Shown: positions 9,785-51,600 of the stretch, one piece after another
Layout: each line of letters begins with the position of its first letter
How positions within the stretch are numbered: position 1 is the stretch's first letter
Assembly (NCBI GenBank): GCA_023665365.1
Contig: JAMPEA010000002.1
Location: 5,051-69,050, forward strand
DNA length: 64,000 nucleotides
Direction: 5' to 3'
Source of the DNA: Bacillota bacterium
GTDB lineage: Bacteria > Bacillota > Clostridia > Christensenellales > CAG-917
The notes under the pieces: generated by a model
The model's database searches: none
Seen by the model: the letters and a program-made list of their open reading frames with translations, nothing else
What the model was told of the DNA's origin: nothing
Program-made: the position numbers and the translations under genes

Positions 9785-9805
9785 TTAAAACGTAACATAA
9801 AAAAA

Positions 9806-9832
9806 GACTCTCCTATTCGGAGAGCCTTTTTT
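9806..9832. terminator. bidirectional hairpin terminator between convergent genes
   Basis: Stem ctctcc/ggagag (9808-9813 / 9819-9824), flanked by an A-run and a T-run. Confidence 0.6.
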
Positions 9833-9844
9833 ATTTATTTTGGG

Positions 9845-12800
9845 TTAGTACAAAGGCGAGCCTTCGGCAATAATTTCAAACGTATAGTCTGTATCGTTTA
9901 CGTCGATATAGTATTTCCAATATTCCTCGTCGTTCTCGTTGGTGGCGACAAATATCAAGCAGTCGTCCTCCTCGGAGAAGTAATAATATCCCTTGCGCGT
10001 ACGCGGTAGACCGTCGTCCTCGTAGAAGAAGTTGTAGGTCGCACTGCCGTAGCCGTCGAGCGTGAGCCTCGTATCGCGGTGTTCTCCGCTTTCGAGGACC
10101 ATATCTCCCGTGAGCGGATGGGTGCTGTATCCGTCGTACTCTCTGTATACGCCGTAGCCGCCCGCGGTTGACAGCTTAAAGCGGAAGCCTTCGCCGCTTG
10201 TGGGGTTGAACGTGTAATTTTTATCGTCCTTGCTGTAAGTGCCCTCGCCGATGGTTTGATAGGTCACGCTATCCTCGTCGTATGCCTGTATTGTCACCGT
10301 GCCATCAGCGTCGATAATCATTCTCTTATACGCGCTTATCGTGCCCGCTTGATAGGGGTAGTAGATGCCGATATTTTCCGACGCGGTTGAAAAGCTGTGG
10401 TTTTCCCTATTGAGCACGAAAGTTTTCTTGTTGTTGTCGTATACGAACGTCACCGCGTTGTAGTTTTTGCCGAACACCGTGCAGAGGGGGATTTCCGAGA
10501 AGTCGTCTCTATATATCGCTCTGCCGTAGCCCGTGAGAATGAGGGTATAGCCGTCGCTGTTTGTAAACTCGCCCGCCCAATTCGCGTCATATTCGATGAA
10601 AACTTGATAGTTGTTGAAAGTGTCCAGCACGAATTTAATCGTTGACGTATCGTCAAACGTGAGGGTGTAGACGTCCGCGTCTATTTTGTTGTCGTAAGAC
10701 TTGACGTAAGTTGTCTCTTTGTCGAGTTTAACGTCGCCGTCGTCATAGGAGTAGCACGCCGTGCCGTCTCCGCCGAGAATGAGCTTGGTTATGTCTGTGG
10801 CAAGGTCGAAGTCAAGCAGATATTGGAAGTAAACGCCCGCCTCGTTATTTTTGACGACAAAGTTGTCGCCGTCTATTTTGAACGTGTAGACGACGTTCGA
10901 GTCGGTGTATGCGTCGTAGTAGAGGAGGGTGACGATTTCCCATTCCTTTGCAAACTCGCCCTCGATGACAAAGTTGTCGCTGTCGCGGAAGGTGGCGTTA
11001 AAGCCGTAGCCGTCGAGGATAAGCGTAGCGCCGTCCGCCGCAGTGTACGTGCCCGCAAAGGCTTCGTCGTAAACCACGTATAGCCTTCTCCAATCCTCAG
11101 AATAGGCGTTGCCGAAATTGATTTGACGGATTGCAATTTTTATAGTGCTGCCACTAAAAATTATCTCAAACTCATCTTCGTTTTCGGTCTTATGATATAT
11201 GCCGCTCTTTTGTATGGCGAATTTATCGCTTGCGGGGTTGTAAACGTAAACGTCTGCGCGGTTTTCGCCGTTGAGGTAGATATAAGTCGTCGCGTCAAAG
11301 CCGTCGGCGTAGGAGTAGAGGTCGTACGTGCCGACTTCGTTGCCGATTTGCCTATAAGTGATGGTCGCGCCGCTGTCGTCAAAGCGGAAGAAGCGTTGAT
11401 TGTAGTTTTCGTCAGTGATGAGCAACAGGTCTTGATACATCTGCATCTCGCCGATGAACGTGCCGCCGCTGTCGTTGTGCGTGGCGTTGCCGTAGCCGTC
11501 GAGGACGATTGTCGAAGCTCCGTTCTCTGCCGACCAAGTGCCTGCCAGACTCTCGTCGTAGATTATGAACGCGCCGTAGACGTCGATGCCCGAGGTGATA
11601 GACGTAAGTTTAAAGTTGAACGTGTCCTTGAAAATGTCGTCCAGGGTAGCGCCGCCTATAAGCGAGACGAATTCGTATTTGATTTCGCCGCTTTCAAGCA
11701 CCTCGTACGTTCCGTTTGCGAGTTCTTGGGCAGTAGCGCCGCTGTTGGCGTAGACGGTAGCGCCGCCGCTGCCGTCAAGCAAAATGAGATAATCGCCGAT
11801 AGCGGGGGTTTTAATGTCGTACTGATAATAGACTCCTATCTCGTTGCCGACCGCCATAAAAGCGTGGATAGTATCAACTAAAACGTACGTCTTGACCTCT
11901 TTCGTAGATTCGTCGATAAAGTTGACGAATTCATCCGAAAAGCCCGATATACTTGTTTTTTCGCAGATGCCATAGACGGATTTATCGTTTGCGTCGGTGT
12001 AGGTCGCATAGCCGTAGCCGTCTACCGCAAGGGTTTCGCCGTCGGGGCTTGTGTACGTGCCGTAGACGGTTTTGTCAAAGATAGTAAACGCGTTGTAGAC
12101 GACGGGTCTCGCGCCCGTATCGGCGGATTGCCTTACGCGCTTTGCGAGCCTTACTTTGCAATCGCCGAACAAACCGAATGTGTAGTCAACGACCACTTTA
12201 AGGTCGTATTCCTCGGTGGCGGGGTTATACGTCTTGTACGTCCCCAAAGCCCAATCGGTCTCGTAATAGTCGCCGTAAATGCGGAAAGTATTGTCGCTGT
12301 TGAGATACAGACAACGCTCCATATTAAATGTGTCGTTTGAGGGATAGTAGAGCACGTATGCGTCCTTATCGAAGCCATACTCGTATACGTCGAATTGCGC
12401 GTTCGCTCCGTCGAGCACGGCGCAGAGGCTCGTTTCGTTATAGTCGAAGTCTACGTAAGTCCCGTCCAAGGAAAGCTCGGATTTTAAAACGACACCTTCA
12501 TAATCAATATAGGCATACTCGCCGTCGATAAAGATATAGTTTTCCTCGCCGACCTGTTGCAACTTTAATACATAGTCGTCGGGGATTGTGATAATCGGCT
12601 CGCCGTTAGACTCGTATCTCGCATAATAAGTTCTGTTTTCGGCGGGCATAATTTCCGGAAGAGATACGCTTTCGCCCTCGTCATTCAAAAACCAGCCGAC
12701 AAAGTTCATTCCGTCCTTTTGCGGCGCGGTGGGCGGCGTAATAGTCTTGCCCGCTTCGCTCACGATGGACGGAATGCTTTCGCCCTCCACCACGAACGAT

Positions 12801-28844: not shown

Positions 28845-30023
28845 ATGAATGTAGGAGAAATTCTTAAAAATCTTGGCGAAAGCACAGGCTTCGCGCAGTT
28901 CGGAGGAGCGGGCTGGAAGTCGATTATAATGATTATAATCGGTCTGTTTTTCCTGTGGCTCGCTATCAAAAAGAAGTTTGAGCCGCTGTTGCTTGTGGGT
29001 ATCGCGTTCGGCATTATACTTACAAACCTCCCAGGCGGCGGACTTTATCACTCGGATTTCTGGAATAGCACGTCCATTGATTACGGAAAGGTTTTGAAAG
29101 AGGGCGGATTGCTCGATATACTCTACATAGGCGTTAAGACCGGCGTATATCCCTGCTTGATTTTCATCGGCGTCGGCGCTATGACGGACTTCGGTCCTAT
29201 GCTGTCGCGTCCAAGCTCGATGGTGCTCGGGGCGGCGGCGCAGGGCGGCATATATCTCGTGCTTATCCTCGCGGTTGCGACCGGTATGTTCAGCGGCGGC
29301 GAAGCGGCTTCGATTTCGATTATCGCGGGCGCGGACGGACCTACGGCTATCTTCCTTACAAAGACGCTTGCTCCTAAACTGCTCGCGCCTATCGCGGTCG
29401 CGGCGTACTCGTATATGGCGCTCATTCCGCTTTTGCAACCTCCGTTTATGAAACTGCTCACCACAAAGAAAGAGCGTATGACCGTCATGACGACCACCCG
29501 CAAGGTCAGCAAAAAGGAAAAAATCATCTTCCCGATTTTGGTTACGATTATCGTATCTCTGCTTTTGCCGTCAGTTGCGCCTCTGCTCGGCTGCCTTATG
29601 TTTGGCAACCTGCTCAAAGAGTGCGGCGTAACCGAAAGGCTTTCCGACACCGCGCAAAACGCGCTTATGAATATCGTCACGCTGTTCCTCGGCATCTCGG
29701 TCGGCGCAACTGCAATCGGCGCGACGTTCCTCCAAGTGGAGACGCTACTCATCATCGTGCTCGGGCTTTTGGGCTTCGTTCTTGCGACGGTCTGCGGCTT
29801 GCTCATCGGCAAACTGCTTTACGTCATCTCCAAGGGCAAAATCAATCCGCTCATCGGGTCTGCGGGCGTATCCGCCGTGCCTATGGCGGCGCGCGTATCC
29901 AACACGGTCGGCTTGCAGTATAACAAGGGCAACTACCTTCTTATGCACGCGATGGGTCCGAACGTGGCGGGAGTGATTGGGTCGGCGGTGGCGGCGGGCT
30001 TCCTCCTTGCCGTCTTTGGCTAA
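28845..30023 (+). CDS. Na+-translocating decarboxylase beta subunit (OadB/GcdB/MmdB family)
   Basis: 392-aa polytopic protein with 'ADGPTAIF' and 'GSAGVSAVPMAARV'. RBS AAGGAG. Confidence 0.88.
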   Translation: MNVGEILKNLGESTGFAQFGGAGWKSIIMIIIGLFFLWLAIKKKFEPLLLVGIAFGIILTNLPGGGLYHSDFWNSTSIDYGKVLKEGGLLDILYIGVKTGVYPCLIFIGVGAMTDFGPMLSRPSSMVLGAAAQGGIYLVLILAVATGMFSGGEAASISIIAGADGPTAIFLTKTLAPKLLAPIAVAAYSYMALIPLLQPPFMKLLTTKKERMTVMTTTRKVSKKEKIIFPILVTIIVSLLLPSVAPLLGCLMFGNLLKECGVTERLSDTAQNALMNIVTLFLGISVGATAIGATFLQVETLLIIVLGLLGFVLATVCGLLIGKLLYVISKGKINPLIGSAGVSAVPMAARVSNTVGLQYNKGNYLLMHAMGPNVAGVIGSAVAAGFLLAVFG

Positions 30024-30041
30024 AATTTTACAAATATTGAA

Positions 30042-30077
30042 CGCGCCCTCATATTTGAGGGTGCGTTTCTTTTTTTG
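30042..30077 (+). terminator. rho-independent terminator of the decarboxylase operon
   Basis: Stem cgcgccctca/tgagggtgcg followed by T-rich 'tttcttttttt'. Confidence 0.75.
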
Positions 30078-30388
30078 TAAAATTTTAGCCAACTACCGCG
30101 CAAAACATTTTTGCTAAGGTTTCTTTGAAACATTACGCAAAAATCTTTTGCTTGGTGATTAACCCCACAAAATGGAATTTTGTGGGGACCCCGAGGGACG
30201 ATTTTTTACTCGTCACGTACGACTTGTACGTTGGGCGAGATAAAAAATCGCCTCTTTCGCGTCCTGCATCTAAATTACAAGGTTTTATCGCTGCTAAAAT
30301 TTTGTTGGAACCTCATCTAAATGACGAGCTTTTACTATTTTTAAACATTTTGTAAAATTTTAGCCAACTACCGCGCAAAACATTTTTG
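30073..30388. repeat. perfect 41-nt direct repeats bracketing a 234-bp hairpin-rich segment (includes repeat copy B)
   Basis: 'ttttgtaaaattttagccaactaccgcgcaaaacatttttg' occurs at 30073-30113 and 30348-30388. Internal 10-bp hairpin ccccacaaaa/ttttgtgggg (30163-30187) and a long imperfect hairpin at 30199-30251. Confidence 0.85.
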
Positions 30389-30518
30389 ATTGTCAATGTT
30401 TGATGGAGAACTTTGGAGCTTTTTAATGGGGAACTTTGGAGTAATCGGCTTGATTGGATAATTGAAACTTTCGGCTAATTTAATATTCAATATTATTATA
30501 GCCGATAAAAGATAAATG

Positions 30519-30728
30519 TCAATCTTGGCAAAGAATATAATTTGTATCTACGTCCAAAATTTTGCAGAGGTTGGCGAGAGTGTCGAGTGCGGGCATTTTT
30601 ACGCCACGAACGTAGCAAGAAATTTGTTGCGACCTAATGCCCAACCGTCTTGCTATTTCACTTTGACTTAACCCGCTTTGATTTATAGACTCCGCCAATC
30701 TCTTTTGTATGTTGTCGAGTGTAATCAT
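30519..30728 (-). CDS. XRE-family HTH regulator (cI-like position)
   Basis: 'LSQSEIARRLGIRSQQISCYVRGVKMPALDTLANLCKIL'. RBS AGAGGT. Confidence 0.85.
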   Translation of the reverse strand: MITLDNIQKRLAESINQSGLSQSEIARRLGIRSQQISCYVRGVKMPALDTLANLCKILDVDTNYILCQD

Positions 30729-30759
30729 ATATGACCTCTTATATTATTTTTGAATATTG

Positions 30760-30834
30760 TACACCCAATAGGTGCAATTTTCTTGACTTCTACCCAACGG
30801 GTGTAGTATTATCAAACTACACCTAATGGGTGAA
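30760..30834. promoter_or_regulatory. three TACACC-N5-GGTGNA operator-like sites in a divergent promoter region
   Basis: Sites at 30760-30776 (TACACCcaataGGTGCA), 30789-30805 (degenerate left half, GGTGTA right half) and 30818-30834 (TACACCtaatgGGTGAA). TTGACT at 30783-30788. Confidence 0.6.
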
Positions 30835-30853
30835 AATGCTTTGGGAGTATATT

Positions 30854-31072
30854 ATGAAAAAGCAAAATCAGCAGACGATTTTTTGTAAAGAGGATTTTAA
30901 ATGGCATTATATTTCGTTTTATCTTGACAGCTTATTAGGGTCTGTTCCGATTGACGATGAGGAGTTTCTTAAACTTTTTAAGGCAGTGCAAGACTACGTC
31001 GAAAAAAAGGTGTTTACAAAAATAGCGGGCGACCCTGTGGATATGTACGTCATCATTGAAAGAAAAGTATAA
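30854..31072 (+). CDS. small hypothetical protein (72 aa, cro-like position)
   Basis: ATG 30854 with a GGGAG RBS. No recognisable family. Confidence 0.45.
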   Translation: MKKQNQQTIFCKEDFKWHYISFYLDSLLGSVPIDDEEFLKLFKAVQDYVEKKVFTKIAGDPVDMYVIIERKV

Positions 31073-31201
31073 TTTGCGCTGGAAAATTTTATTTTAATTT
31101 TATTGCAAATGGGTATTTACAATATACGTTATAAAGGTATAAAATATATAAGCAATATATTCGCGCGCTACGCGTACGCGCGTAGGTATGGGAGAAAGAT
31201 T

Positions 31202-34200
31202 ATGAGCAAAAAAATGATGAAGAAAAGCACAATTACGGCGGGCGTTGTTCTGTTTGCCGCTGTGCTTTGTTTTACGTTGGTGTTTAGCCTCTCGTTTAAA
31301 ATTTTTGAGGGGGGGGGGGGGCATTGCTGCCGCTGAAAAATTGACTGCGTCAATCAAATCGGGCAATAATACCATAGGTTTCGAGGACGGTCGCATTGAT
31401 TGTATAGTTGGCGAGCATGGCGAGCTGACTGCCGATTTGTTTACTTTTTCAAATTCTGCTGACAAATACGAATGGACTTTGACGGAAAATTTTGAAAACG
31501 GAATTGCCACACAGTACAATCATCAAATTTATACAAAACACAACGCGAATGATGATCTCTTAATTCAAGAAGTCAATGATTCGAGTTTTATTTTTAAGTT
31601 TGGAATTAATGCATGGGGCGAACAACTTCTGGGGAATGATAGCGCCGACAAAAACTGGTTTTCAATGGCAACCAACTATAAAATTGATGATTTTTTGAAA
31701 AACTTTATAGATGATACTAATTATAAAGTTAAGGTAGACGCTTCCGCGACAATATCCTCCGATGATACGACACAAGAAATCTATTTCGGCATTGCAGCTA
31801 CAAGCGAGCCATATTCGGGGCAAAATGCCTACGATAAAATGTATGGTCAGAATTGTAAGAGCCAGAGCAATGGTATTTTATGTGACAAAAATTACGTAAC
31901 GACTGATAGAGAATTTAACACCATAGACGGATGTAGCAATAGAGGAAGCGGTTGCAAAAATTGTCCCGGTTATGAATTGACGTTGACGGACGATAACGAG
32001 TACATTGCAATTATGGCTGGCTCGTGGTTTAAATATTTAAAAAACGCGGACGAGCGTACAATTACCATCAGCAAACTTGCATTGAATTTCACTGTGACCT
32101 ACGTCGGAGAGGGGGACTACAACACCGCGGCGAACTCCGTGGGGCTTAGCTACAAGTCGGCGACGGGTAGCTTTGACAACAGCATAGACAATCTCTATGC
32201 AACCTTGATTGCCGACGCGCAGTGGGCGACCGACGAGGCAAAACTTATGCTCAACGTAGAAAACCTCAACGCGTTTGGCAACTCCGTCGTCTTTCAAGAC
32301 GCAGAAGATAAGGAATATTTGCTTACATTTTACAAGGACGGCAAGCTCGCGCTTTATACAGCCGACGGCAAGGCGGGCGAGATAAGCTCCGCTTCGGATA
32401 AGATAACGGCAAATATCAAGACGGAGCTTGACGAGACGGAGATTTATATATCCTACTCGGTCGCTGACGGCAACGGCGTTATTACGATTGAGTTTGAAGG
32501 CTACGACAGCGTAGCAAACTGCTATCCGACCGTTGCTTGGCGTACGGATTTTACGCTCACCGAGCATCCGTATACTAGCCTTGACAGCGTAGACGGCGGG
32601 ACTTCCACTGACACGGCAAATATCTTTATCGACCGCAACGACCCCGACGCTCCCGTGTTTAGCGGCAATAAGCTCGTGCAAAATAGCGACTACACGCTTG
32701 CCGCAAACAGGCAGTGGTTGACGAGCTACAACGGGTTTGCGCCTACGCTCGCATTTGACGACTTCCTTGCAAACGACGATTACAACGGCGGATACACACT
32801 GTACACCGCGGTCAAGCATTTCAATTCCGCTTCGGCTTTCGCGGCTTTTAAAAACACTAACAGCATCGAGAGCGGATATAAAAATATAAACAACAGCAAC
32901 TACAATGCGACTTACAGCCTCGACGCGTTCGCCACTCCCTCTTTCGGTTCGACGGTCGCTATCGACCTGCTGTCCGGCAAGGGCGCGGGCTTGCGCCTCA
33001 TCTACGTTTGGGTCGTGGACCAAGCGGGCAGGGCTTCGCAGTTGAACTCCTACTACGTGCTTGCAGACGCTACAAATTACAGCGTGTCGGCAAGTATTGA
33101 CAGTGCGTCCACAGGCACGGTCTCGGCAAGCGGCACAAGCGTGAAGCGCGGGGAGTCTGTAACGTTTACAATTACGCTCCAAAGCGGCTACGTTCCATAT
33201 CGCTTTAAAAACGGAAGTGCCGACTTGCTCGTCAACGACACCGCTAATCAAGCCCTCGTAAAGGCGGACGCCGATAATGATTTAGTTTCGGTCGCGCACA
33301 CCGACGACAGTGATACCTATGTCGTCACGTACACGTTCGAGGACGACTCGATTGACGAGCTTTCTACAACTGCGTTTAGTTTCACTGCCTCCGCAAGGAA
33401 GAAGGTCGTCATCGCAAGTCTCAATACAAGCTATACGACGACCTACGGCATCGCGGTCGATTTGAATGATAACCTCACTGTCAACGACGACACGGCAAAA
33501 AGCCTCTTTGCATTCACCTATTACAACGAAAACGGCAATACGCTTTTTGGGGACGGCACGTCCGCGCCCGTGGACGCGGGCTCGTATAGCGCGGCAGTCT
33601 CTTTCCCGAGCGACAACGCCTCGTACGTGCTATCGTCGTCGCTAAGCGACAGAATTTCTATCACAGTCAACAAAATCAGCGTGACGATTACGCCAAACGC
33701 AACGCAAAGCTACTACGGCGACGAGATTTTGCTCGGCTACACCCAAACGGGCTTCCGCGCAATAGACGGCGAGACGCTGTCCGTGTCTCTCAAACTCAGC
33801 GGAGTGGGTAGCGGATTTGTAAGCGTCGGCTCGTATAATATCGTCAACGACGGCGAGCTTGTCGTCAAAAAGGGCGCGCAAAATAGCCAAAACTACGACG
33901 TGAAGTTGAACGCAACTCCCGTCAAGCACACTGTAAACAAGCGCAACGTCGCACTCAACGTAACAAGCGGGCAATACTCCGTGGTTGAGTATGGAATCTC
34001 GCCCAATCCCAATGGCGTAAATATCCAATACACCCTCGCAACCGCGGATAACGAGCTTTCAACCTATATCGCTAACGTCGTCAACGGGAAGCTCAAACTG
34101 ACCTACGTGCAGGACACCGACGAGGGCATAAATACGAAACTCTATTCGCGCAAATACGTCTACGACATAACCCTTGAAAACGCAGACGATGACAACGTAA

Positions 34201-35039
34201 ATATCACCATCGGCGATGATGCGCAGTATATCATCTACGTCGGGGCAAATCCCAATCCTACTCCCGACCCAGACCCAGACCCCGAGCCTGAACCCGAATC
34301 TGTCGTCGTCGAGACGGAAAATGCGTCCGTCACCGTCGAGAACGGAAATTCCGTCAACCGACTCGAAATCGAGGAAGTCACGGACGGCAACGGCACTCAT
34401 AGCGAGCTTTGGAATTCAATCAGCGCGAGCATTGCCGATATCGACGACAAAGCCGAGGTGACTTTGATTGTAAAGCTCAATCTCTATCTCGACGATACGC
34501 CTGTCGCAGACCTTAACGGCAATATATCCGTCAGTATTAAAATCCCCGAGGCGCTTGGCGACTTGCAGGACGTTACGATTTACGTCGAAAACTCAAACGG
34601 CGATTTGCAATGCCTCTCGGATTATACTATTTCGTCCGGCAGATTGGAATATGCAGGCGACTGCCTCGGCGCGCTCGTATTCGCCAAAGACAGCGACGAC
34701 AACTCGGGCGACGATAACCCGACAAATCCCGAAAACCCCGAAAATCCTACAAACCCCGACGACCCCGACGATAATACGGGCGATAACAACGGCGATAATA
34801 ACGAAAACCCCGATAATACCGGCGACGACAACACGGGAGATAACACGGGCGACGACAATATCGGCGATAACGGCGGCAATACGGGAAGCAACGTCGGAGA
34901 CAATACGGGAGACGTTGAAAATGCGCCCAATGGCTTAAAGACTTGGCAGATTGCCGTCATAGCCGTCGCATGCGCGGTTGTTGCAATCGGCGCGGCTGTC
35001 GTGACCGTTGTCCTTATCCGTAAGTCCAAAAAGAAATAA
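31202..35039 (+). CDS. large membrane-anchored surface protein (adhesin-like), interrupted by a frameshift at a G13 tract
   Basis: Signal/anchor 'MSKKMMKKSTITAGVVLFAAVLCFTLVFSL' (frame of 31202) stops at 31334-31336. The 1264-aa ORF continues in the next frame from the G tract. MBG-like 'VTITPNATQSYYGDE', 'PNPTPDPDPDPEPEPE' and (N/D)-P/T-G low-complexity stalk, C-terminal TM plus 'RKSKKK'. Confidence 0.75.
31309..31321 (+). repeat. homopolymeric G13 tract (candidate slipped-strand phase-variation switch)
   Basis: 13 consecutive G between the signal peptide and the mature protein. G12 or G15 would fuse the two frames. Confidence 0.9.
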
Positions 35040-37671: not shown

Positions 37672-37702
37672 CAGAAAAACGCGGTTTAAACGCGTTTTTC
37701 TG
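37672..37702. terminator. bidirectional terminator
   Basis: Perfect 12-bp stem cagaaaaacgcg/cgcgtttttctg between convergent genes. Confidence 0.8.
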
Positions 37703-37720
37703 TTATATATGGTTTTTATT

Positions 37721-39031
37721 CTATTTTGCGGAGCTTTGTGCTTTTAACGTGTTGAGGTTGGCTTCGAGGCGTTTGATGAGGGAATATACGTAGTCTATGT
37801 CTATCTTCCACTCCTCATATTTGGACTTTATCGTCGATACGCTCAACGTCTTTCTGAACCCGTCCTCCATATAGATGCACTGCTCGCTTAGGGCAATCAT
37901 GTACTCCTGTTCGAGCTTGTTTGCGAAGAAGGTGTTCAGCGGATACTTTGCGCTAAACGTCATATGCAGGCTCTTTCGCTCGTTCACGGACAAGTCGAGG
38001 TATTCGAGAAATTTCTCGCGGTTGTCGAAGTGGTTGTGATATAGGTGCGCGGTGTCGTTGTATATGTATGCGCGTATCAAGTGGAAAAGACATTTGTTGT
38101 GTTGCAAGGTTTTTTCAAGCTCGTCCGTGAGTTTCAGAGTATTTTCAAAGCACTCCAACGCCTTTTCGCGGCAGGGCTTTTTCATATCATCGTCGATGCC
38201 GTCGTTTTTGAGGAACAGAGTGCAGGCAAGCCCGTATACGTCGTAGCAGAGTATCTTTTCGATTTTTTTGATATTGCTATCGGCGTTTTGCAGTCTCTGC
38301 AAAAACTGCTCGAAAACCGTCGTGAAGTTGAAAAACGCCGACGTGGACAGCGGCTTGGACATATTGTAGCTGTCCAAAAACACGTCGATATACGCCTTTG
38401 CAAACTGTATCACAAAGTTGAACTCGGTCGAGCCCGTTATGTTGTTGAGCTGAGCGCGCAGATACTTGTTGTCGTTGTAGTAGTACGCCGCAAGGCAACC
38501 CATAATCACGTATTCTTCGAGCTCGCGCTCGGACACTCCCGCCACTTTGTCCGAAAACTTATGGCGCAGGGTAGTCCATTCGTTGATGATTGTAAAAAAG
38601 TCGTCGCGGAGCTCCTTATTGGACGCTTTCAAATATTTTTCGCAAATCTCCGCCGCGAGTTTTCTGTCGCTATTTTCGCAGGTTCTGTCGCGTTTGAGCT
38701 CCGTCGCCCAAGCGCCGAGCAGGTCGCTTGGCAAGTCGCGCGAGGATTTGTCAATCATAAATATCTGTATGTCTCGGCTTCGGATGCTGTTGTTTGCAAG
38801 GATATATCCCCACTCGAAAAGCAGGTTGGGGCTTATTTGTCCGTTGTAGTCCTCAACCAAGAGTATCGCACTGTTGCACTGATTTATTTGGTCGATAACT
38901 TGCGCGCCGACAAAGACGTCGGTTGGCGAACCTCCGCCTATAATCACGTTATTTTCATCGCTTTGCAACAGGTTTTTTACTTCGTATGCAAGCGACTGAT
39001 TGCCGCCCCAGCCGATAAAAATGTTGTTCAT
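37721..39031 (-). CDS. TIR-like (Cap12/Pycsar-TIR-type) N-terminal domain fused to a ~300-aa helical domain
   Basis: N-terminal ~125 aa carry 'NIFIGWGGNQ', 'AILLVEDYNGQISPNLLFEWGYILA' and 'DLPSDLLGAWATEL', matching PF10137-type TIR-like proteins. The rest is helix-rich with no recognised motif. The SD GAGGAG overlaps the upstream stop. Confidence 0.6.
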   Translation of the reverse strand: MNNIFIGWGGNQSLAYEVKNLLQSDENNVIIGGGSPTDVFVGAQVIDQINQCNSAILLVEDYNGQISPNLLFEWGYILANNSIRSRDIQIFMIDKSSRDLPSDLLGAWATELKRDRTCENSDRKLAAEICEKYLKASNKELRDDFFTIINEWTTLRHKFSDKVAGVSERELEEYVIMGCLAAYYYNDNKYLRAQLNNITGSTEFNFVIQFAKAYIDVFLDSYNMSKPLSTSAFFNFTTVFEQFLQRLQNADSNIKKIEKILCYDVYGLACTLFLKNDGIDDDMKKPCREKALECFENTLKLTDELEKTLQHNKCLFHLIRAYIYNDTAHLYHNHFDNREKFLEYLDLSVNERKSLHMTFSAKYPLNTFFANKLEQEYMIALSEQCIYMEDGFRKTLSVSTIKSKYEEWKIDIDYVYSLIKRLEANLNTLKAQSSAK

Positions 39032-39041
39032 AATCTACTCC

Positions 39042-39503
39042 TCAATACGGGGTTTTATCTGCGAGCGCATTGTACTTTTCAAATAGCGCGAGACATTCGG
39101 CTCGGTCGATGCACTCGGCGTAGTTTTTCAAATTTTCTCTTCCGCCGAGCAGGGTATCGAATTTCTTGTCGCGGAAGCCGATAAGACTGTTGTCGTCGAG
39201 AGTGCAGCCGTAGTAGACTTTTTCGATATTCGCCCACATACACGCCGTCAGACACATAGGACACGGCTCGCCCGTGGTGTATATCACGCACCCAGACAGG
39301 TCGAAAGTGCCCAGATTTTTGCTCGCGTCGCGGATTGCCTGTATTTCGCCGTGGCAGGTGGCGTCGTTGTTGGCGACAACTTGGTTGTGACCTTTTCCTA
39401 CGACCTTGCCGTCTTTTACGATAACGCTTCCGAAAGGTCCGCCCTCTTTGGACAGTATGCCCGTCATCGCCTCGTCTATTGCCAGTTTCATAAACTCGTT
39501 CAT
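39042..39503 (-). CDS. CDA-fold zinc deaminase, guanine deaminase (GuaD)-like
   Basis: 'CHGEIQAIRDA' (HxE) and 'GEPCPMCLTAC' (PCxxC). Collinear with B. subtilis GuaD, including the C-terminal 'GFRDKKF'. Confidence 0.75.
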   Translation of the reverse strand: MNEFMKLAIDEAMTGILSKEGGPFGSVIVKDGKVVGKGHNQVVANNDATCHGEIQAIRDASKNLGTFDLSGCVIYTTGEPCPMCLTACMWANIEKVYYGCTLDDNSLIGFRDKKFDTLLGGRENLKNYAECIDRAECLALFEKYNALADKTPY

Positions 39504-39688
39504 CGTTTCACCGTATAATAATTATAGCTTATTAGAGTTTATTATATTTTCGTTGCGCTGTCAATAACGGACGAAATTTTAAATGCGCCAAACCTGTGCA
39601 TTTTTGGCAGATTACGGCGAGGCGCAAACGGCGCGGTTTAACATACTCGGCGTTTTGGGCATATTATGGGATTATCGCAGGAGGTACT

Positions 39689-40963
39689 ATGAATCCATTT
39701 AACGAAAAACCGATTTCATTGTTTGAAGCATTTGAAAATTGGAAGCAACTCTATCCCATCGCCTACAATAAGTATGAGGTCGACCCTTACACCAAGACGC
39801 GCATAATACTTATGAACGGCACGGAGTTCGAGGCGAATTGGTTTTCGCATCAGTTCTCGCGGCACGTGAGCGATACCGATTTAAGGCGGGAGCTTGCGCT
39901 TACGCGCGCCCTCGAAAAGCAGCAGCAAATCAAAATATCTCTGTTGAAGCCTTGCAACGAAAGTCCGCTCGAACATACTATCGCGTACGAACAGCTCGCG
40001 GTAGATCTCACCGCCGAGCTCGCGCGCAGAGAGAGCGACTGCTACGTCAAAAAAGCGCTCGATTTCGCCTTGCTCGAAGACTTCGACCATCTTTACAGAT
40101 ACTCGGATTTACTACATATGACACAGGGCGTTCTCGCCGAAAGGCTCGTCGGCAGATATACCGAGATTATGCCCGGCCGTCCGACTATCTCGCACCACCG
40201 CTATCCCAAGGACAACGTGCGCAGGTGTATCAACTCCAAATACTCCGACAAGCAGACCGTGCTTTCAGCTATGACTATCACCGCCGCCGAACAGCAGACT
40301 ATGAACTACTATATGAACGTCACAAACCTCGCAACCGACGAAATGTCGCGCAGACTCTATCAGGAAATCGCCCTCGTCGAGGAGGAGCACGTCACGCAGT
40401 ACGAGGACCTCATGGACGCGGATTCGACTTGGTTTGAAATGCTCCTTTGGCACGAGTACAACGAGTGCTACCTCTATTGGTCGTGTATGGTCACCGAAAC
40501 GGATAAGTATATCAAATCGCTTTGGGAGCAGAACCTCGCCATCGAAATCGCCCATCTGCATAAGGCGGCTCAGCTCCTCGAAAAGTACGAGCACAAGCAC
40601 TGGCAGGAGGTCATCGGAGACGGCGAATTCCCTGCGCCTATCTCCTTGCACGAAAATATCGACTACGTGCGCGACGTGTTGAAAAATACCGTCCAGTTTA
40701 CCTCCGTCAGGGAGGACTACGAAAACGTGGACGCGCTCCCGCCCGACGCGGATTTCTTCAAGTATCAAAACAAAATAAATCCCACGCCCGATATAGAACC
40801 CGCGCACTTGGTTATCGACGCGCATATCAGACGCTATGGCATGGACTATCGCTACGAAACCGCGCCCAATCCCGTCGAGCAGTTGCGCAACAGACGCGTG
40901 GACAACACCGACGTCGGCAGAGTCCCCGGCGCCGCGTCCAGCACAGACTTCAAATGCAATTAA
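39689..40963 (+). CDS. ferritin-like (di-iron four-helix-bundle type) domain protein
   Basis: ATG 39689 with an AGGAGG RBS. ExxH motifs 'VEEEH' and 'EIAHLH'. Helical. Family not firmly recognised. Confidence 0.4.
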   Translation: MNPFNEKPISLFEAFENWKQLYPIAYNKYEVDPYTKTRIILMNGTEFEANWFSHQFSRHVSDTDLRRELALTRALEKQQQIKISLLKPCNESPLEHTIAYEQLAVDLTAELARRESDCYVKKALDFALLEDFDHLYRYSDLLHMTQGVLAERLVGRYTEIMPGRPTISHHRYPKDNVRRCINSKYSDKQTVLSAMTITAAEQQTMNYYMNVTNLATDEMSRRLYQEIALVEEEHVTQYEDLMDADSTWFEMLLWHEYNECYLYWSCMVTETDKYIKSLWEQNLAIEIAHLHKAAQLLEKYEHKHWQEVIGDGEFPAPISLHENIDYVRDVLKNTVQFTSVREDYENVDALPPDADFFKYQNKINPTPDIEPAHLVIDAHIRRYGMDYRYETAPNPVEQLRNRRVDNTDVGRVPGAASSTDFKCN

Positions 40964-41255: not shown

Positions 41256-41603
41256 ATGTCTATGTATGATATTGAATTTTATCAGACATCTAACGGTAAA
41301 ATACCTGCAATAGAGTATTTAAAAGAATTAGATAGGACAGGCTGTCGAAAAGAAAAAGATAAAATTGAAACATACATAAACATGTTGGCTAACATCGGTG
41401 ATAAATTATTGATAAATAAAAATGTAGCAAAGCATTTGGAAAACGGCATTTATGAATTAAGACCGGGGCGATATCGAGTTTTATATGCAAAGTTGAATCC
41501 CGATAAATACGTTATTTTGCATATACATTTAAAAAGAGATAAAAAAGAACAAAATAATGAAATAAAAAAAGCTTACAAAGAATATAAGAAAATTGTAACA
41601 TAG
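41256..41603 (+). CDS. RelE/HigB-superfamily toxin (phage Gp49-like)
   Basis: 'IEFYQTSNGKIPAIEYL', 'IYELRPGRYRVLYAKL' and 'VILHIHLKRDKK'. RBS AAGGAGG. ATG 41262 is an alternative start. Confidence 0.75.
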   Translation: MSMYDIEFYQTSNGKIPAIEYLKELDRTGCRKEKDKIETYINMLANIGDKLLINKNVAKHLENGIYELRPGRYRVLYAKLNPDKYVILHIHLKRDKKEQNNEIKKAYKEYKKIVT

Positions 41604-41643
41604 CATTGTTTATAGGGGTTAAAATAATAGGAGGAGCAATACT

Positions 41644-42045
41644 ATGGCGGGTAACATAATGAATTGGCAAGATTATAAAAACAAACAAAAGCAAATAAGT
41701 GAACAAGAAAAGTTAAGAATTGAAACCGGCGAAGATATAGCAAGGATTATTACAGACATTATAGAATATAGAAATGATAACGGTATAAGCCAACGAGATA
41801 TTGCCGAAAAAACGGGATTAAAACAACCTGCAATAGCGAGAATGGAAAAGCTTGATACAATGCCCAGATTGGATACCATATCTCTAATCGCCAATGCAAT
41901 AGGCTATAAATTAGAACTTGTGGAAAAAGAGAAAGCACAAGAAAGCGTTACTATTGATATAGGTCACGATTGCTATAATTGTATGTGTTATAAAATTACT
42001 GCAAGTCTTTTTAATAATAAAAAGGAGATTTACTGTTATGATTAA
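41644..42045 (+). CDS. HigA-like XRE antitoxin with C-terminal extension (candidate chaperone-addiction segment)
   Basis: HTH 'ISQRDIAEKTGLKQPAIARMEK', then a ~40-aa Cys/aromatic-rich tail 'IDIGHDCYNCMCYKITASLFNNKKEIYCYD'. RBS GGAGGAG. Confidence 0.75.
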   Translation: MAGNIMNWQDYKNKQKQISEQEKLRIETGEDIARIITDIIEYRNDNGISQRDIAEKTGLKQPAIARMEKLDTMPRLDTISLIANAIGYKLELVEKEKAQESVTIDIGHDCYNCMCYKITASLFNNKKEIYCYD

Positions 42046-42424
42046 TATAAAAGAAATGGAGATACATAATGCATCCTTTAAAGTCAATCATATAGAAGGA
42101 GAGTCATTTAATATACCTGCACAATTCGGGCGATCGATAGATCATATAAACGATGGCAGATATTTATTAACTTTAACTATTAACGTCAAAAATGAAAAAG
42201 ATAAACCGTTTCCTTTTGATTTGGAATGTGCCATAAATGCATATTTTGAGTGCGATAATAACGAAACAGAAGATGAAGCGAAGAAATATATAGCCGAAGA
42301 GGGAACGGCAATCGTTTTTCCTTATCTAAGATCCTACATATCGACTCTAACATCGGCATCTATGATACCTCCATTAGTTTTACCGATAATTGATTTGGCA
42401 AAAATATTTGATGATAAATTATAA
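42038..42424 (+). CDS. SecB-like chaperone
   Basis: Collinear with E. coli SecB: 'YLLTLTINVKN', 'FDLECAINAYFEC' and 'AIVFPYLRSYISTLTSASMIPPLVLPIIDLAKIF' (compare '[33 protein letters not shown]'). 8-nt overlap with the antitoxin gene. Confidence 0.75.
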   Translation: MINIKEMEIHNASFKVNHIEGESFNIPAQFGRSIDHINDGRYLLTLTINVKNEKDKPFPFDLECAINAYFECDNNETEDEAKKYIAEEGTAIVFPYLRSYISTLTSASMIPPLVLPIIDLAKIFDDKL

Positions 42425-46312: not shown

Positions 46313-46404
46313 GGAGAAATACCCAAGAGGCCGAAGGGGCTCCCCTGCTAAGGGAGTAGTACGCGAGAAGCGTAGCGAGGGTTCAAATCCCTCTTTCTCC
46401 GCCA
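46313..46404 (+). tRNA. tRNA-Ser(GCU): tRNA-Ser (anticodon GCU)
   Basis: Acceptor GGAGAAA/TTTCTCC, anticodon stem CTCCC/GGGAG with loop CTGCTAA, long variable arm, T-loop GGTTCAAATCC, encoded CCA. Confidence 0.9.
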
Positions 46405-50439: not shown

Positions 50440-51600
50440 AAGCAAAAGTTACTTGTAGTTAAAATTTAATAATTTAGCTGATAGGTTTTATAAATACGAG
50501 CAGTGCAATTTAAACAATTCGTTTGAGGTGGCAAAATCAAGCACCTGTCTGGGATAGTTATTAACCCAATCTTCAACCGCCTGTATTTCCTCTTTCGTAA
50601 ACTTCGCAAGGTCTACACCTTTTGGGAGCAAACGGCGAATTTCACGATTAAGTCGTTCATTTGTTCCGCGTTCATAGCTCGAATAAGGATGACAATAATA
50701 CATAATTGTTCGTTTACCTCGATATATAGAACGTTCAAGCCCGATGCAATCGGAAAACTCTGTACCGTTATCAACAGTAATACTACGAAAGACCTGCCTA
50801 AACATTTTACCATAACGACGTTCAAGAATATTTAAACAGCGAATAACACTTTCGGTTTTTTTATTGGGCATCTGCATTATAATTTCCTTACGAGTAAGGC
50901 GTTCGGAAAGAACGAGCAGGGTAGTTTTTGATGCCCCTACGACGCAATCCATTTCCCAGTGACCAAAGCTATCTCGCGCATTTATATCATTTGGGCGATT
51001 TTCAATGCTAATACCTTTCGGTGCGCTTTTTGCTATCGTTGTACGCTTGTGCTTTTTCGGTCGAGATTTAAGCGGCAAGTCTTGCAAATCTATATTGTAA
51101 AATAAGCCCATTTCAATATAACGATAGAGTGTAGTTTTACTTATTTGAGTTTGAAATGGCAATCCTTTACGCTTAATCTCACCGAGAACAGCACACGGCG
51201 ATAGCTTATCTACGAGAACGCGCTTTTCGACATAACGAACAAACTCATAATCATTGCCGATTTTGAGAGGTGCGCCTTTTGAATGTGAATTCATATCACA
51301 TAAATCCTGTGCTTTATTTGGACTATATCGTGTCTCATATTTCCACGTTTGCCCGTCTAAATGCTGATATGAGCCACGTTTCAACTCATTATAAACGGTG
51401 GCAAGACAGACGCCTAATTTTTCGGCGATTTCCTTTTTAGACAATTTAGCACGCAAATATGCTTCTAATTGCAAACGCTGAGTATACGTCAAATTTTTAG
51501 TTCCGCGTTTTTTCATTTTTTCTATCCCCTCGTACAGCAATCGGGGGATAAGTAACGGACGGCAACGCGCTAAACCGCTTTTGCTCGTCCGTTTTACTTA
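50440..51600 (-). mobile_element. IS30-family insertion sequence (ends not resolved)
   Basis: Defined by the transposase ORF. I could not identify convincing terminal inverted repeats, so the boundaries are approximate. Confidence 0.5.
50488..51516 (-). CDS. IS30-family transposase
   Basis: N-terminal HTH 'SKKEIAEKLGVCLATVYNELKR'. DDE region 'HWEMDCV', 'TVDNGTEF' and 'PYSSYERGTNERLNREIRR'. RBS GAGGGGA. Confidence 0.9.
   Translation of the reverse strand: MKKRGTKNLTYTQRLQLEAYLRAKLSKKEIAEKLGVCLATVYNELKRGSYQHLDGQTWKYETRYSPNKAQDLCDMNSHSKGAPLKIGNDYEFVRYVEKRVLVDKLSPCAVLGEIKRKGLPFQTQISKTTLYRYIEMGLFYNIDLQDLPLKSRPKKHKRTTIAKSAPKGISIENRPNDINARDSFGHWEMDCVVGASKTTLLVLSERLTRKEIIMQMPNKKTESVIRCLNILERRYGKMFRQVFRSITVDNGTEFSDCIGLERSIYRGKRTIMYYCHPYSSYERGTNERLNREIRRLLPKGVDLAKFTKEEIQAVEDWVNNYPRQVLDFATSNELFKLHCSYL

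Follow-up and report, generated by a model that had tools for sequence, protein, structure and literature searches.

A GuaD-type deaminase gene and a gene for a TIR-helical protein in a tight operon of a Christensenellales bacterium

Gene structure of the operon

The window (the whole stretch of 64,000 nucleotides that was analyzed) carries two adjacent genes on its minus strand, encoding a 153-residue deaminase and a 436-residue protein. The features of the locus, in the direction of transcription, are:

39536..39564, minus strand: promoter-like site TTGACA-17 nt-TAAACT, 5' of the deaminase start (consensus scan, 10 of 12 matches; a consensus match alone)
39042-39503, minus strand: GuaD-type CDA-fold zinc deaminase, 153 aa (PF00383, 2.8e-25; HGE, PCPMC, GFRD and a C-terminal Tyr)
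39038..39043, minus strand: GAGGAG Shine-Dalgarno sequence of the 436-aa gene, from reading the sequence; overlaps the deaminase stop codon TGA at 39042-39044
37721-39031, minus strand: the 436-aa gene (open reading frame list and sequence)
38687..39031, minus strand: TIR domain, residues 1 to ~115 of the 436-aa protein (PF10137, Foldseek and residue mapping to 7un8)
37724..38671, minus strand: all-helical C-terminal domain, residues 121-436 (AF2 model; motifs GCLAAYYY, YIYNDxAHLY and KLEQEYxIALSEQC)
37672..37702, no strand assigned: hairpin terminator with a 12-bp stem containing 6 GC pairs, an A-run before it and a T-run after it

On the minus strand the gene junction reads ...CCGTAT TGA GGAG TAGATT ATG, where the GAGGAG sequence is separated by 6 nt from the ATG of the 436-aa gene (39031) and the intergenic gap measures 10 nt. 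Both reading frames, the overlap of stop codon and Shine-Dalgarno sequence, and the short gap can be read directly, in agreement with the tight minus-strand operon described in an earlier note on this DNA, and the spacing suggests that the two genes are translationally coupled. The motifs quoted in that note (IFIGWGG, AILLVEDYNGQISPNLLFEWGY, LPSDLLGAW, CHGE and PCPMC) were all found, and a hairpin and a promoter-like site were located where it placed a bidirectional terminator and a divergent promoter region; the hairpin separates the 436-aa gene from a convergent DUF2804 gene. Both open reading frames are real genes rather than chance frames, since they have strong homologues: PF00383 for the deaminase, and PF10137 as well as 91 full-length relatives for the 436-aa protein.

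Third-position GC content (GC3) is host-like in the two genes (0.67 and 0.64, against 0.60-0.68 in the flanking genes) and ~0.25 in a neighbouring toxin-antitoxin-chaperone module, which rules out that the pair is part of that neighbouring foreign island. The best reading is that the pair constitutes a chromosomal two-gene operon that has been resident for a long time.

Domains of the two proteins

The N-terminal region of the 436-aa protein matches PF10137 in Pfam (1.5e-7; 31.9 bits, where the gathering score is 24.7), the alignment running over residues 3-112 and spanning profile positions 1-117 of 119, and seven of ten distant members of the superfamily also pass the threshold. In Foldseek searches with the AF2 model, the top PDB fold matches are SfSTING (7un8, the best at 8e-4) and TIR-STING (9lmq), at E values of 8e-4 to 1e-3, and the top match in BFVD is a Cap12/Pycsar TIR protein (1.3e-4); secondary matches include nucleoside 2-deoxyribosyltransferase (NDT; RMSD 3.0 Å) and DNPH1 (TMt 0.70). 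These matches identify the N-terminal domain as a true TIR domain of the Cap12/PycTIR type, as the earlier note had proposed on the basis of motifs. To our knowledge, TIR domains of this class act solely as immune effectors that are turned on by dedicated second-messenger synthases, and we know of no characterized PF10137 protein with a metabolic role. Database entries name the 436-aa protein a "nucleotide-binding protein".

Profile alignment to 7un8 places Asn69, Glu73 and Asp103 on SfSTING Asn80, Glu84 and Asp110, respectively. The three residues are invariant in all 41 close family members and are conserved in 38 of 38, 38 of 38 and 36 of 38 distant members; the position of SfSTING Arg78 is occupied by Ser. 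Glu73 is the glutamate of the FEWGY motif to which the earlier note had drawn attention. As judged from the aligned residues, the active site is apparently intact, and the invariance of the glutamate together with two more active-site residues across ~80 diverse sequences argues for catalysis.

The remainder of the protein is all-helical and confidently modelled, with an AF2 pLDDT of 90 (90.4) for the full 436-aa protein and 89 for the helical domain alone. Neither sequence searches of this domain against Pfam, PADLOC, NCBIfam and the PDB nor Foldseek searches of the PDB, using the full model and the domain alone, gave a usable match (for the fold searches, none at E ≤ 1e-3), and the domain is as unassignable as first noted. 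The best fold match is to 14-3-3 (TM ~0.45, RMSD 8-9 Å), which is not significant. Assignments as a 14-3-3 or TPR domain were dropped on account of such insignificant fold matches, and STING, SAVED and cyclic-nucleotide-binding (cNMP) domains were ruled out by the Pfam and fold searches. The domain is restricted to ~68 clusters at 50% identity, nearly all with the same TIR-helical architecture, and its polar motifs are strongly conserved. It is a domain without a solved homologue that is specific to one small superfamily.

The best PDB sequence matches of the deaminase are B. subtilis guanine deaminase (1tiy/1wkq, 8e-30), plant guanosine deaminase (GSDA; 7dbf, 1.5e-25) and TadA (5e-19), in keeping with the GuaD type noted before. 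In common with the first two, it has the zinc ligands and catalytic Glu, as well as the GFxD Asp and a Tyr at the C terminus; in the alignment, Asp112 falls on the second of the two Asp residues in GFDD, the form of this motif in B. subtilis. In the B. subtilis GuaD structure, a swapped C-terminal segment is said to provide the specificity residues, namely the GFxD Asp and the terminal Tyr156; a literature search on the role of Tyr156 itself returned nothing. The deaminase motifs are common to 62 relatives, both paired with a TIR gene and unpaired, and all 62 of them end in Tyr. Since the aligned catalytic and specificity motifs are unchanged and the paired enzymes form no exclusive clade, nesting instead among unpaired ones in the deaminase tree, a specialized partner subfamily was ruled out; by these sequence criteria, the paired deaminases are ordinary GuaD-type enzymes.

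Distribution and gene neighbourhoods of the family

The TIR-helical family is rare and patchy, being found by a pattern scan in 16 of 185,579 species genomes, with members in anaerobes of the gut and the rumen; at least four proteins were matched when a profile of the distant members was used in a word-indexed homologue search. The flanks of family loci consist mostly of housekeeping genes. In 12 of 20 close-family loci the TIR gene adjoins a deaminase gene, which is the sole neighbour to recur across otherwise unrelated flanks. Eleven of these pairs are on the same strand with gaps of 10-24 bp (13 bp at locus L101) and one is divergent. The pair is kept at this spacing while TIR identity drops as low as 38% and nothing else of the synteny remains, and the pairing is present both in the basal clade and in the window's clade of the family tree, which are mirrored by clades of the deaminase.

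Seen from the deaminase, the association disappears: a TIR gene adjoins none of 77 related deaminase genes in metagenome loci, and at 51 of these loci the sequence extends at least 1.4 kb downstream. The flanks of paired and unpaired deaminase genes were compared for a clean indel marking the presence or absence of the TIR gene, but they share no usable synteny. The pairing is real but one-sided, so that the co-conservation that the earlier note proposed to test holds from the TIR side and fails from the deaminase side. The proposal of a dedicated two-gene system is not supported: co-occurrence is not reciprocal, the deaminase is an ordinary GuaD-type enzyme whose gene lacks the TIR neighbour at all 77 related metagenome loci, an outcome that the note itself had listed as a refutation, the paired copies are nested among unpaired ones, and partners are swapped across branches. 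Literature searches on deaminases together with PF10137, TIR or TIR-like domains, one of them also on anti-phage defence, yielded no description of the pairing, and partners of the deaminase, LOG or nucleoside hydrolase type go unmentioned in the main text of a published TIR survey.

Across the superfamily, the tight partners mostly degrade nucleotides, nucleosides or free purine bases. A LOG/TIGR00730 gene lies upstream of the TIR gene at two loci (L009 and L016) and downstream at L101, an IU-nucleoside hydrolase gene lies downstream in two distant branches (a fragment at L106 scores below the Pfam threshold), and a DHH phosphoesterase is the tight partner in Treponema primitia. The nucleotide-breakdown theme is not universal, because a CatA-like acetyltransferase is the partner in two distant loci and five or six family loci are without any nucleotide-enzyme partner.

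We also analyzed the genomic context for signs of a defence system. Defence or mobile-element genes occur within a few kb in ~5 of 20 family loci, comprising TIR_2-NACHT, TIR_2, WYL with helicase, integrase, and the toxin-antitoxin-chaperone module, and enrichment in defence islands is not clearly seen. PADLOC gave no match for the TIR protein, and the collections of viral contigs, phage genomes and plasmids that were searched contained no relatives of the pair. Together with the host-like GC3, these results do not sustain the description of the pair as a defence-like cassette. Pfam analysis of the window genes revealed no cyclase, CD-NTase or ThsA-like gene within ~12 kb, as had been remarked, and the gene calls at 12 related loci include no CD-NTase or pyrimidine cyclase. 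For Thoeris, there is no ThsA, SIR2 or SLOG-effector gene nearby and no PADLOC match; for Kongming, the families KomA, KomB (HAM1-like) and KomC (SIR2) are absent from the Pfam and PADLOC results. Variants of CBASS, Pycsar, Thoeris and Kongming were ruled out by the absence of these defining partner genes.

Possible roles of the TIR-helical protein

The closest relationship is to Cap12 (TIR-STING, SfSTING) of CBASS and PycTIR of Pycsar, whose TIR domains belong to the same Pfam family and give the best fold match, and with which the 436-aa protein has in common the catalytic Glu, the Asn that contacts the ribose and the Asp that acts in trans. The overall layout is also alike, with a TIR domain fused to a sensor-sized C-terminal domain in an operon with a nucleotide-modifying enzyme. 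However, the C-terminal domain here is unrelated and all-helical, being neither a STING nor a cyclic-nucleotide-binding domain; SfSTING Arg78 is replaced by Ser; the protein has no PADLOC match; and the place of a CD-NTase or pyrimidine cyclase is taken by an enzyme that is mostly encoded apart from any TIR gene, namely a housekeeping-type deaminase, LOG or a nucleoside hydrolase. Relative to GuaD and GSDA, the difference is that in a minority of lineages the deaminase gene is followed by a TIR-helical gene.

Two other defence systems resemble the pair in parts. In Kongming (adenosine deaminase KomA, KomB and the SIR2 NADase KomC), a base-modified nucleotide made by the deaminase activates the NADase, and here too a purine deaminase is co-encoded with a predicted NAD+-degrading effector. 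The likeness is one of logic alone: the present deaminase is a CDA-fold GuaD rather than an adenosine deaminase, the effector is TIR rather than SIR2, there is no KomB/HAM1 gene, and the deaminase is generic, whereas in Kongming it is a dedicated component. DSR2 combines an NADase and a helical-repeat sensor that recognizes a phage protein within a single polypeptide (PMC11850899), and the 436-aa protein likewise has a predicted NAD+-cleaving N-terminal domain and a long helical C-terminal region that may be a sensor. Unlike the 436-aa protein, DSR2 carries a SIR2 domain, is much larger and recognizes the phage tail tube protein, and no sequence or fold relationship between the helical domains was found.

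Outside defence, the TIR-fold metabolic N-glycosidases NDT, DNPH1 and MilB, as well as LOG, have a flavodoxin-like fold with the catalytic Glu on a helix equivalent to that in the 436-aa protein. These enzymes cleave the N-glycosidic bonds of nucleotides or nucleosides, which fits the nucleotide-catabolic neighbours of the TIR gene. The sequence motifs of the 436-aa protein nevertheless follow PF10137, with no Pfam match to the NDT, DNPH1, MilB or LOG families at E < 0.1, and the metabolic enzymes lack a 300-aa helical extension.

Based on these observations, we tentatively propose, as a reading that we favour while holding it with real reservation, that the 436-aa protein is a TIR N-glycosidase whose activity is regulated and linked to the breakdown of purine nucleotides. 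Gene 1 would be the lineage's ordinary GuaD-type guanine deaminase, converting guanine to xanthine, and gene 2 would encode an intact N-glycosidase of the Cap12/PycTIR class. Because the active site would be completed in trans by a partner subunit, by analogy with SfSTING, the TIR protein would be active only when self-associated, and the helical domain most likely controls this assembly or binds a ligand. The substrate may be NAD+ or a purine nucleotide. We infer a role within nucleotide breakdown because most tight partners degrade nucleotides, nucleosides or purine bases; the guanine deaminase would take the released or co-produced base on to xanthine, and the two-step route suggested in the earlier note, glycosidic cleavage followed by base deamination, would be plausible, in this presumed order. 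A point against this reading is that LOG and the nucleoside hydrolase, being N-glycosidases themselves, would act in parallel to the TIR glycosidase and not in sequence with it.

Some features of the family are also at odds with a place in nucleotide breakdown: the CatA-like partner and the loci with no partner break the theme, the 300-aa helical addition is unusual for a catabolic enzyme, the rarity and patchiness of the family, with defence-type neighbours at some loci, are those of accessory genes, and the characterized PF10137 proteins are, as far as we know, all immune effectors.

An alternative that we regard as unlikely is an effector in immunity or stress that is gated by purines: a free oxopurine base or a derivative would be sensed by the helical domain, and this would trigger TIR assembly, NAD+ depletion and cell arrest. 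Xanthine or hypoxanthine would be the shared product of GuaD, LOG and nucleoside hydrolase, and the signal would come from a housekeeping enzyme in a scheme otherwise like CBASS, Pycsar or Kongming. A TIR-sensor fusion beside a nucleotide-modifying enzyme is the layout of every characterized PF10137 protein, the conserved equivalent of the trans-acting Asp110 suggests assembly-dependent activation, the three main partner families all release free purine bases, Kongming provides a precedent, and patchy spread, transfer to Treponema and defence-type neighbours at some loci are in line with such a function. Against this, the deaminase is not dedicated, as shown by the 0 of 77 related loci with a TIR gene and the unaltered motifs of paired copies; composition is host-like, and the gene is vertically inherited at a stable position; a PADLOC match, clear defence-island enrichment and phage or plasmid copies are all wanting; and ligand binding is purely conjectural. 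The more specific version, a new kind of metabolite-gated effector whose helical domain reads an oxopurine base or derivative from the adjacent purine-catabolic enzyme and thereby switches on NAD+/nucleotide destruction by the TIR domain, we consider quite improbable. If true, housekeeping purine turnover (for example, a surge of nucleotides when a phage breaks down the nucleic acids of its host) would feed straight into a suicide or dormancy enzyme of the immune type, and no dedicated signal synthase would be needed; the use of housekeeping flux as an alarm would be a new signalling logic.

The one-sided association could also mean that the TIR protein is an independent single-gene effector, in defence or otherwise, that merely shares the guaD promoter and has no biochemical link to the deaminase, their adjacency being a relic of history or a convenience for expression. 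The loci that lack a nucleotide-enzyme partner are presumably functional, partners vary by branch and include the unrelated CatA-like enzyme, and DSR2 is a precedent for a lone protein that works with an NADase joined to a helical-repeat sensor (PMC11850899). Nevertheless, the persistence of 10-24 bp gaps at identities down to 38%, with other synteny gone, and the low likelihood that partners from such small gene families, LOG (on two occasions and on opposite sides), a nucleoside hydrolase and a DHH phosphoesterase, were recruited independently by chance leave us doubtful of this explanation. Even less probable, in our view, is a non-enzymatic regulator or scaffold, in which partner enzymes or other proteins dock on the helical domain and the TIR domain does no more than bind a nucleotide, the two domains together tuning purine salvage. 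The name given in the databases and the weak resemblance of the helical domain to 14-3-3 and TPR adaptors point in that direction, but the invariance of the catalytic Glu and its two companion residues argues for catalysis, and the 14-3-3 similarity is below significance.

If the protein is a metabolic enzyme, as in the breakdown role that we tentatively favour, the Cap12/PycTIR class would have a role beyond immunity. The TIR-helical/deaminase pair is a compact two-gene system that offers a handle on a new helical domain.

The two genes and the TIR domain

The two minus-strand ORFs of the cassette and their junction, read directly in the sequence, are arranged as the earlier note had claimed, and all peptide motifs quoted there are present:

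37672–37702, hairpin with a 12-bp stem and an A-run and a T-run on its flanks, between the 436-aa ORF and the convergent DUF2804 gene
37721–39031, minus strand, 436-aa ORF, ATG at 39031, directly after the deaminase
39038–39043, minus strand, GAGGAG Shine-Dalgarno, 6 nt 5' of the ATG of the 436-aa ORF
39042–39503, minus strand, deaminase ORF, 153 aa, TGA stop
39564..39536, promoter-like TTGACA-17-TAAACT, upstream of the deaminase

The final two bases of the deaminase TGA are the first two of the GAGGAG. Since both products have strong homologues, the ORFs are genes and not chance. The deaminase is GuaD-type, as proposed: it matches PF00383 (2.8e-25), and among solved structures it is closest to the guanine deaminase of B. 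subtilis (1tiy/1wkq, 8e-30), then to a plant guanosine deaminase (7dbf, 1.5e-25), with TadA behind. Its zinc/catalytic motifs C-HGE and PCPMC, its Asp matching by alignment the second one in GFDD of the B. subtilis enzyme, and its terminal Tyr recur in 62/62 deaminase relatives, TIR-paired or unpaired; the Asp and Tyr are presumably specificity residues, as in the B. subtilis structure.

Residues 3–112 of the 436-aa protein match PF10137, the TIR domain of the Cap12 and Pycsar effectors, at 31.9 bits against a Pfam gathering score of 24.7. The AlphaFold2 model, made from an alignment of 41 family sequences, has high confidence (pLDDT 90.4, pTM 0.75), with a five-stranded α/β domain (residues 1 to ~115) followed by an all-helical region (121–436). 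Its top PDB fold matches are the SfSTING/Cap12 TIR domain (7un8, 8e-4) and TIR-STING 9lmq, below which nucleoside 2-deoxyribosyltransferases and DNPH1 match more weakly; the top viral match is a Cap12/Pycsar TIR protein. By cryo-EM of SfSTING, N80 contacts the ribose and phosphodiester, E84 is catalytic, and D110, inserted from the dimer mate, completes the active site in trans (PMC9402430). The family profile aligns 'NLlfEwGY' with 'NVVFEFGL' and 'DLPSDLlG' with 'DLPTDLDG' of SfSTING, and, allowing for the PDB chain's +8 offset, N80/E84/D110 correspond to N69/E73/D103 of the family. Each is invariant in the close family (41/41), and distant members keep N69 in 38/38, E73 in 38/38 and D103 in 36/38; the SfSTING R78 position is Ser. 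The predicted TIR domain, including the Glu flagged earlier (E73, aligned to E84), is thus well supported by profile score, modelled fold and alignment. Since the equivalent of the trans-acting Asp is conserved, the protein may have to self-associate to be active.

A helical domain in a fixed two-domain architecture

The C-terminal domain had been described as unassignable, and it resists assignment here too: it has no match in Pfam, NCBIfam, PADLOC or PDB sequences, and when modelled alone, with confidence (pLDDT 89.4), none among PDB folds at E ≤ 1e-3. Assignment as a 14-3-3 or TPR domain was rejected, the best folds, which are 14-3-3 proteins (TM 0.42–0.46, RMSD 8–9 Å), having generic helical-repeat likeness only. 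The domain profile recovered just 68 clusters from 1.84 billion representative proteins searched, nearly all of 430–470 aa with the helical domain beginning at about residue 135–150. PF10137 lies at the N-terminus of 7 of the 10 distant members tested, and the close and distant groups are alignable over 429 columns (hhalign E 3.7e-91). The TIR and helical domains thus make up one rare superfamily of fixed architecture. In the helical part, the polar motifs AAYYY, YxYxN, SxxxRxxL and FExEYYxAL are strongly conserved and suggest a specific, putative binding site.

Pairing with the deaminase and other partners

A scan of species-representative genomes returned 16 loci, from Clostridia MAGs of gut and rumen and one Treponema, and look-ups added others; the genome and metagenome scans used exact peptide patterns, which makes the counts minimum values, and their sampling was uneven. 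In 11 of 20 distinct close-family loci a same-strand deaminase orthologue (60–74% identical) lies immediately upstream, with gaps of 10–24 bp in ten measured pairs and 13 bp in L101, the closest well-assembled relative; at one more locus the deaminase adjoins the TIR gene but is divergent. When all flanking ORFs were clustered (neighbours in loci L001–L016 being called by a crude longest-ORF method), the deaminase was the sole neighbour recurring across otherwise unrelated flanks. In neighbour-joining trees of these short proteins, the pairing occurs in the clade of the window and in the basal one but not in a middle clade, and the deaminase clades mirror this pattern, which points to a probably old pairing whose genes co-diversified.

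Seen from the TIR gene, then, co-conservation stands (12/20 loci), but seen from the deaminase it does not: no TIR-helical gene lies within 3 kb of a related deaminase in any of 77 metagenome loci, 51 of which extend 1.4 kb or more downstream. About 30 relatives among these loci are 58–69% identical, the same range as paired deaminases. The paired copies fall into two or three small clades within the unpaired ones, and their aligned catalytic and specificity motifs are unchanged. For these reasons the deaminase is the ordinary GuaD-type enzyme of its lineage rather than a dedicated component, and a dedicated two-gene system is not supported: the deaminase occurs in relatives without the TIR neighbour, an outcome that the earlier note had named as refuting.

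Where the deaminase is missing, and in branches of the family further off, other genes take the tight same-strand position. A canonical LOG (PF03641, TIGR00730) lies directly upstream of the TIR-helical gene at loci L009 and L016/L103, and directly downstream at L101/L102. The L101/L102 cluster runs deaminase, TIR-helical, LOG, LMW phosphatase, and its TIR-helical protein shares 64% identity with that of the window. In two of the distant members, L106 and L107/L108, the next gene encodes an inosine-uridine nucleoside hydrolase (PF01156), and its start overlaps the TIR-helical stop codon or sits 24 bp past it; these hydrolase genes are fragments ended by contig edges, above the Pfam gathering score at L107/L108 and below it at L106 (27.3 vs 34.2 bits). 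In Treponema primitia the next gene downstream encodes a DHH phosphoesterase. Exceptions are a CatA-like acetyltransferase upstream at two distant loci, an unknown 404-aa gene beside one member, two YbjN-like genes, and a TIR_2-NACHT gene; no partner gene was found at L006, L007, L008 or L011. Most independent recruitments are enzymes degrading nucleotides, nucleosides or purine bases, a theme that, on informal judgement, is unlikely to arise by chance in gene families so small.

Several loci have further features. The same-strand cluster of L101 (5526–8388) has an IS200-like Y1 transposase upstream, and a convergent ResIII/DEAD helicase and WYL-domain regulator after it (8434–11978). In the clade without the deaminase, the family gene adjoins other TIR genes: a 938-aa TIR_2-NACHT STAND protein 38 bp downstream at L105 (1395–4211), and a convergent GNAT-like, TIR_2, RyR cluster at the Treponema locus L011/L017 (9262–11537). 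At L019 (9308–10291) two tandem 160-aa paralogues, only weakly YbjN-like (PF10722, E 0.005), come right after the family gene, and they occur in one lineage on many contigs. The CatA-like (chloramphenicol acetyltransferase family) partner is tight upstream in one distant subclade (L109, 5334–5981; L110, 3–764) and clashes with the nucleotide-catabolism theme.

Genomic context and proposed role

The 436-aa protein has no PADLOC match, and none of its relatives occurs in the viral contigs, phage genomes or plasmids of the collections searched. Cyclase, CD-NTase and ThsA-like genes are absent within about 12 kb of the cassette, as already remarked, and its other neighbours in the window are housekeeping (oxaloacetate decarboxylase operon, P-type ATPase, EamA, DUF2804, ABC transporter). 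The GC3 of the TIR gene (0.67) and of the deaminase (0.64) is like that of surrounding host genes (0.60–0.68). Defence or mobile-element genes lie within a few kb at about 5 of 20 loci, assessed informally, which is not a clear defence-island enrichment; the family is rare, patchy and has moved into Treponema, in the manner of accessory genes.

A toxin-antitoxin-chaperone module of defence type lies 2.2 kb from the cassette (41256–42424, plus strand: Gp49/HigB-like toxin, PF05973; HTH_3 antitoxin; SecB-like chaperone, PF02556, matching PADLOC PD-T4-9_C at 3.2e-18), and its GC3 of ~0.25, against ~0.65 in host genes, identifies it as foreign DNA recently inserted. The divergent 424–455-aa ORF at 39596–40963 (plus strand; likely true start an ATG near 39689) shares the cassette's promoter region; Pfam and PADLOC give no match for it and NCBIfam only a weak ferritin-like (MbfA) one, and it is not kept beside the pair in other genomes. 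A 1264-aa ORF (31245–35039, plus strand), preceded by a low-GC stretch (30001–32000, 0.377), has no Pfam match and is probably a surface protein, given its P/D/N/G-rich low-complexity tail and terminal hydrophobic anchor. Window GC falls from ~0.50 over 1–38 kb to ~0.39 over 50–64 kb, and an IS30-like transposase (rve + HTH_38; 50488–51540, minus strand) and tRNA-Ser(GCT) (46313–46404, plus strand) lie near the transition.

The best-supported reading, which we hold tentatively, is that the 436-aa protein may be a regulated N-glycosidase of TIR type that has NAD+ or a purine nucleotide as its substrate and works in nucleotide breakdown, where the co-transcribed guanine deaminase of the window would take the purine base on to xanthine; substrate, activation mechanism and physiological role are what we infer. 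It is rather unlikely that the protein is instead an NADase effector gated by a purine metabolite, which would share its operon logic with CBASS, Pycsar and Kongming but draw its signal from a housekeeping enzyme. An independent, stand-alone effector, linked to guaD by a common promoter only and similar in architecture to DSR2 (PMC11850899), is improbable to the same degree, and a scaffold without catalysis is very improbable.

Literature searches turned up neither a PF10137 TIR protein carrying this helical domain nor any pairing of a TIR gene with guanine deaminase, LOG or nucleoside hydrolase, and a 2025 systematic survey of bacterial TIR systems leaves these partners unmentioned in its main text. 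What the cassette presents is a putative TIR enzyme of the Cap12/PycTIR class with a new C-terminal domain, in an unusual nucleotide-catabolic operon context.
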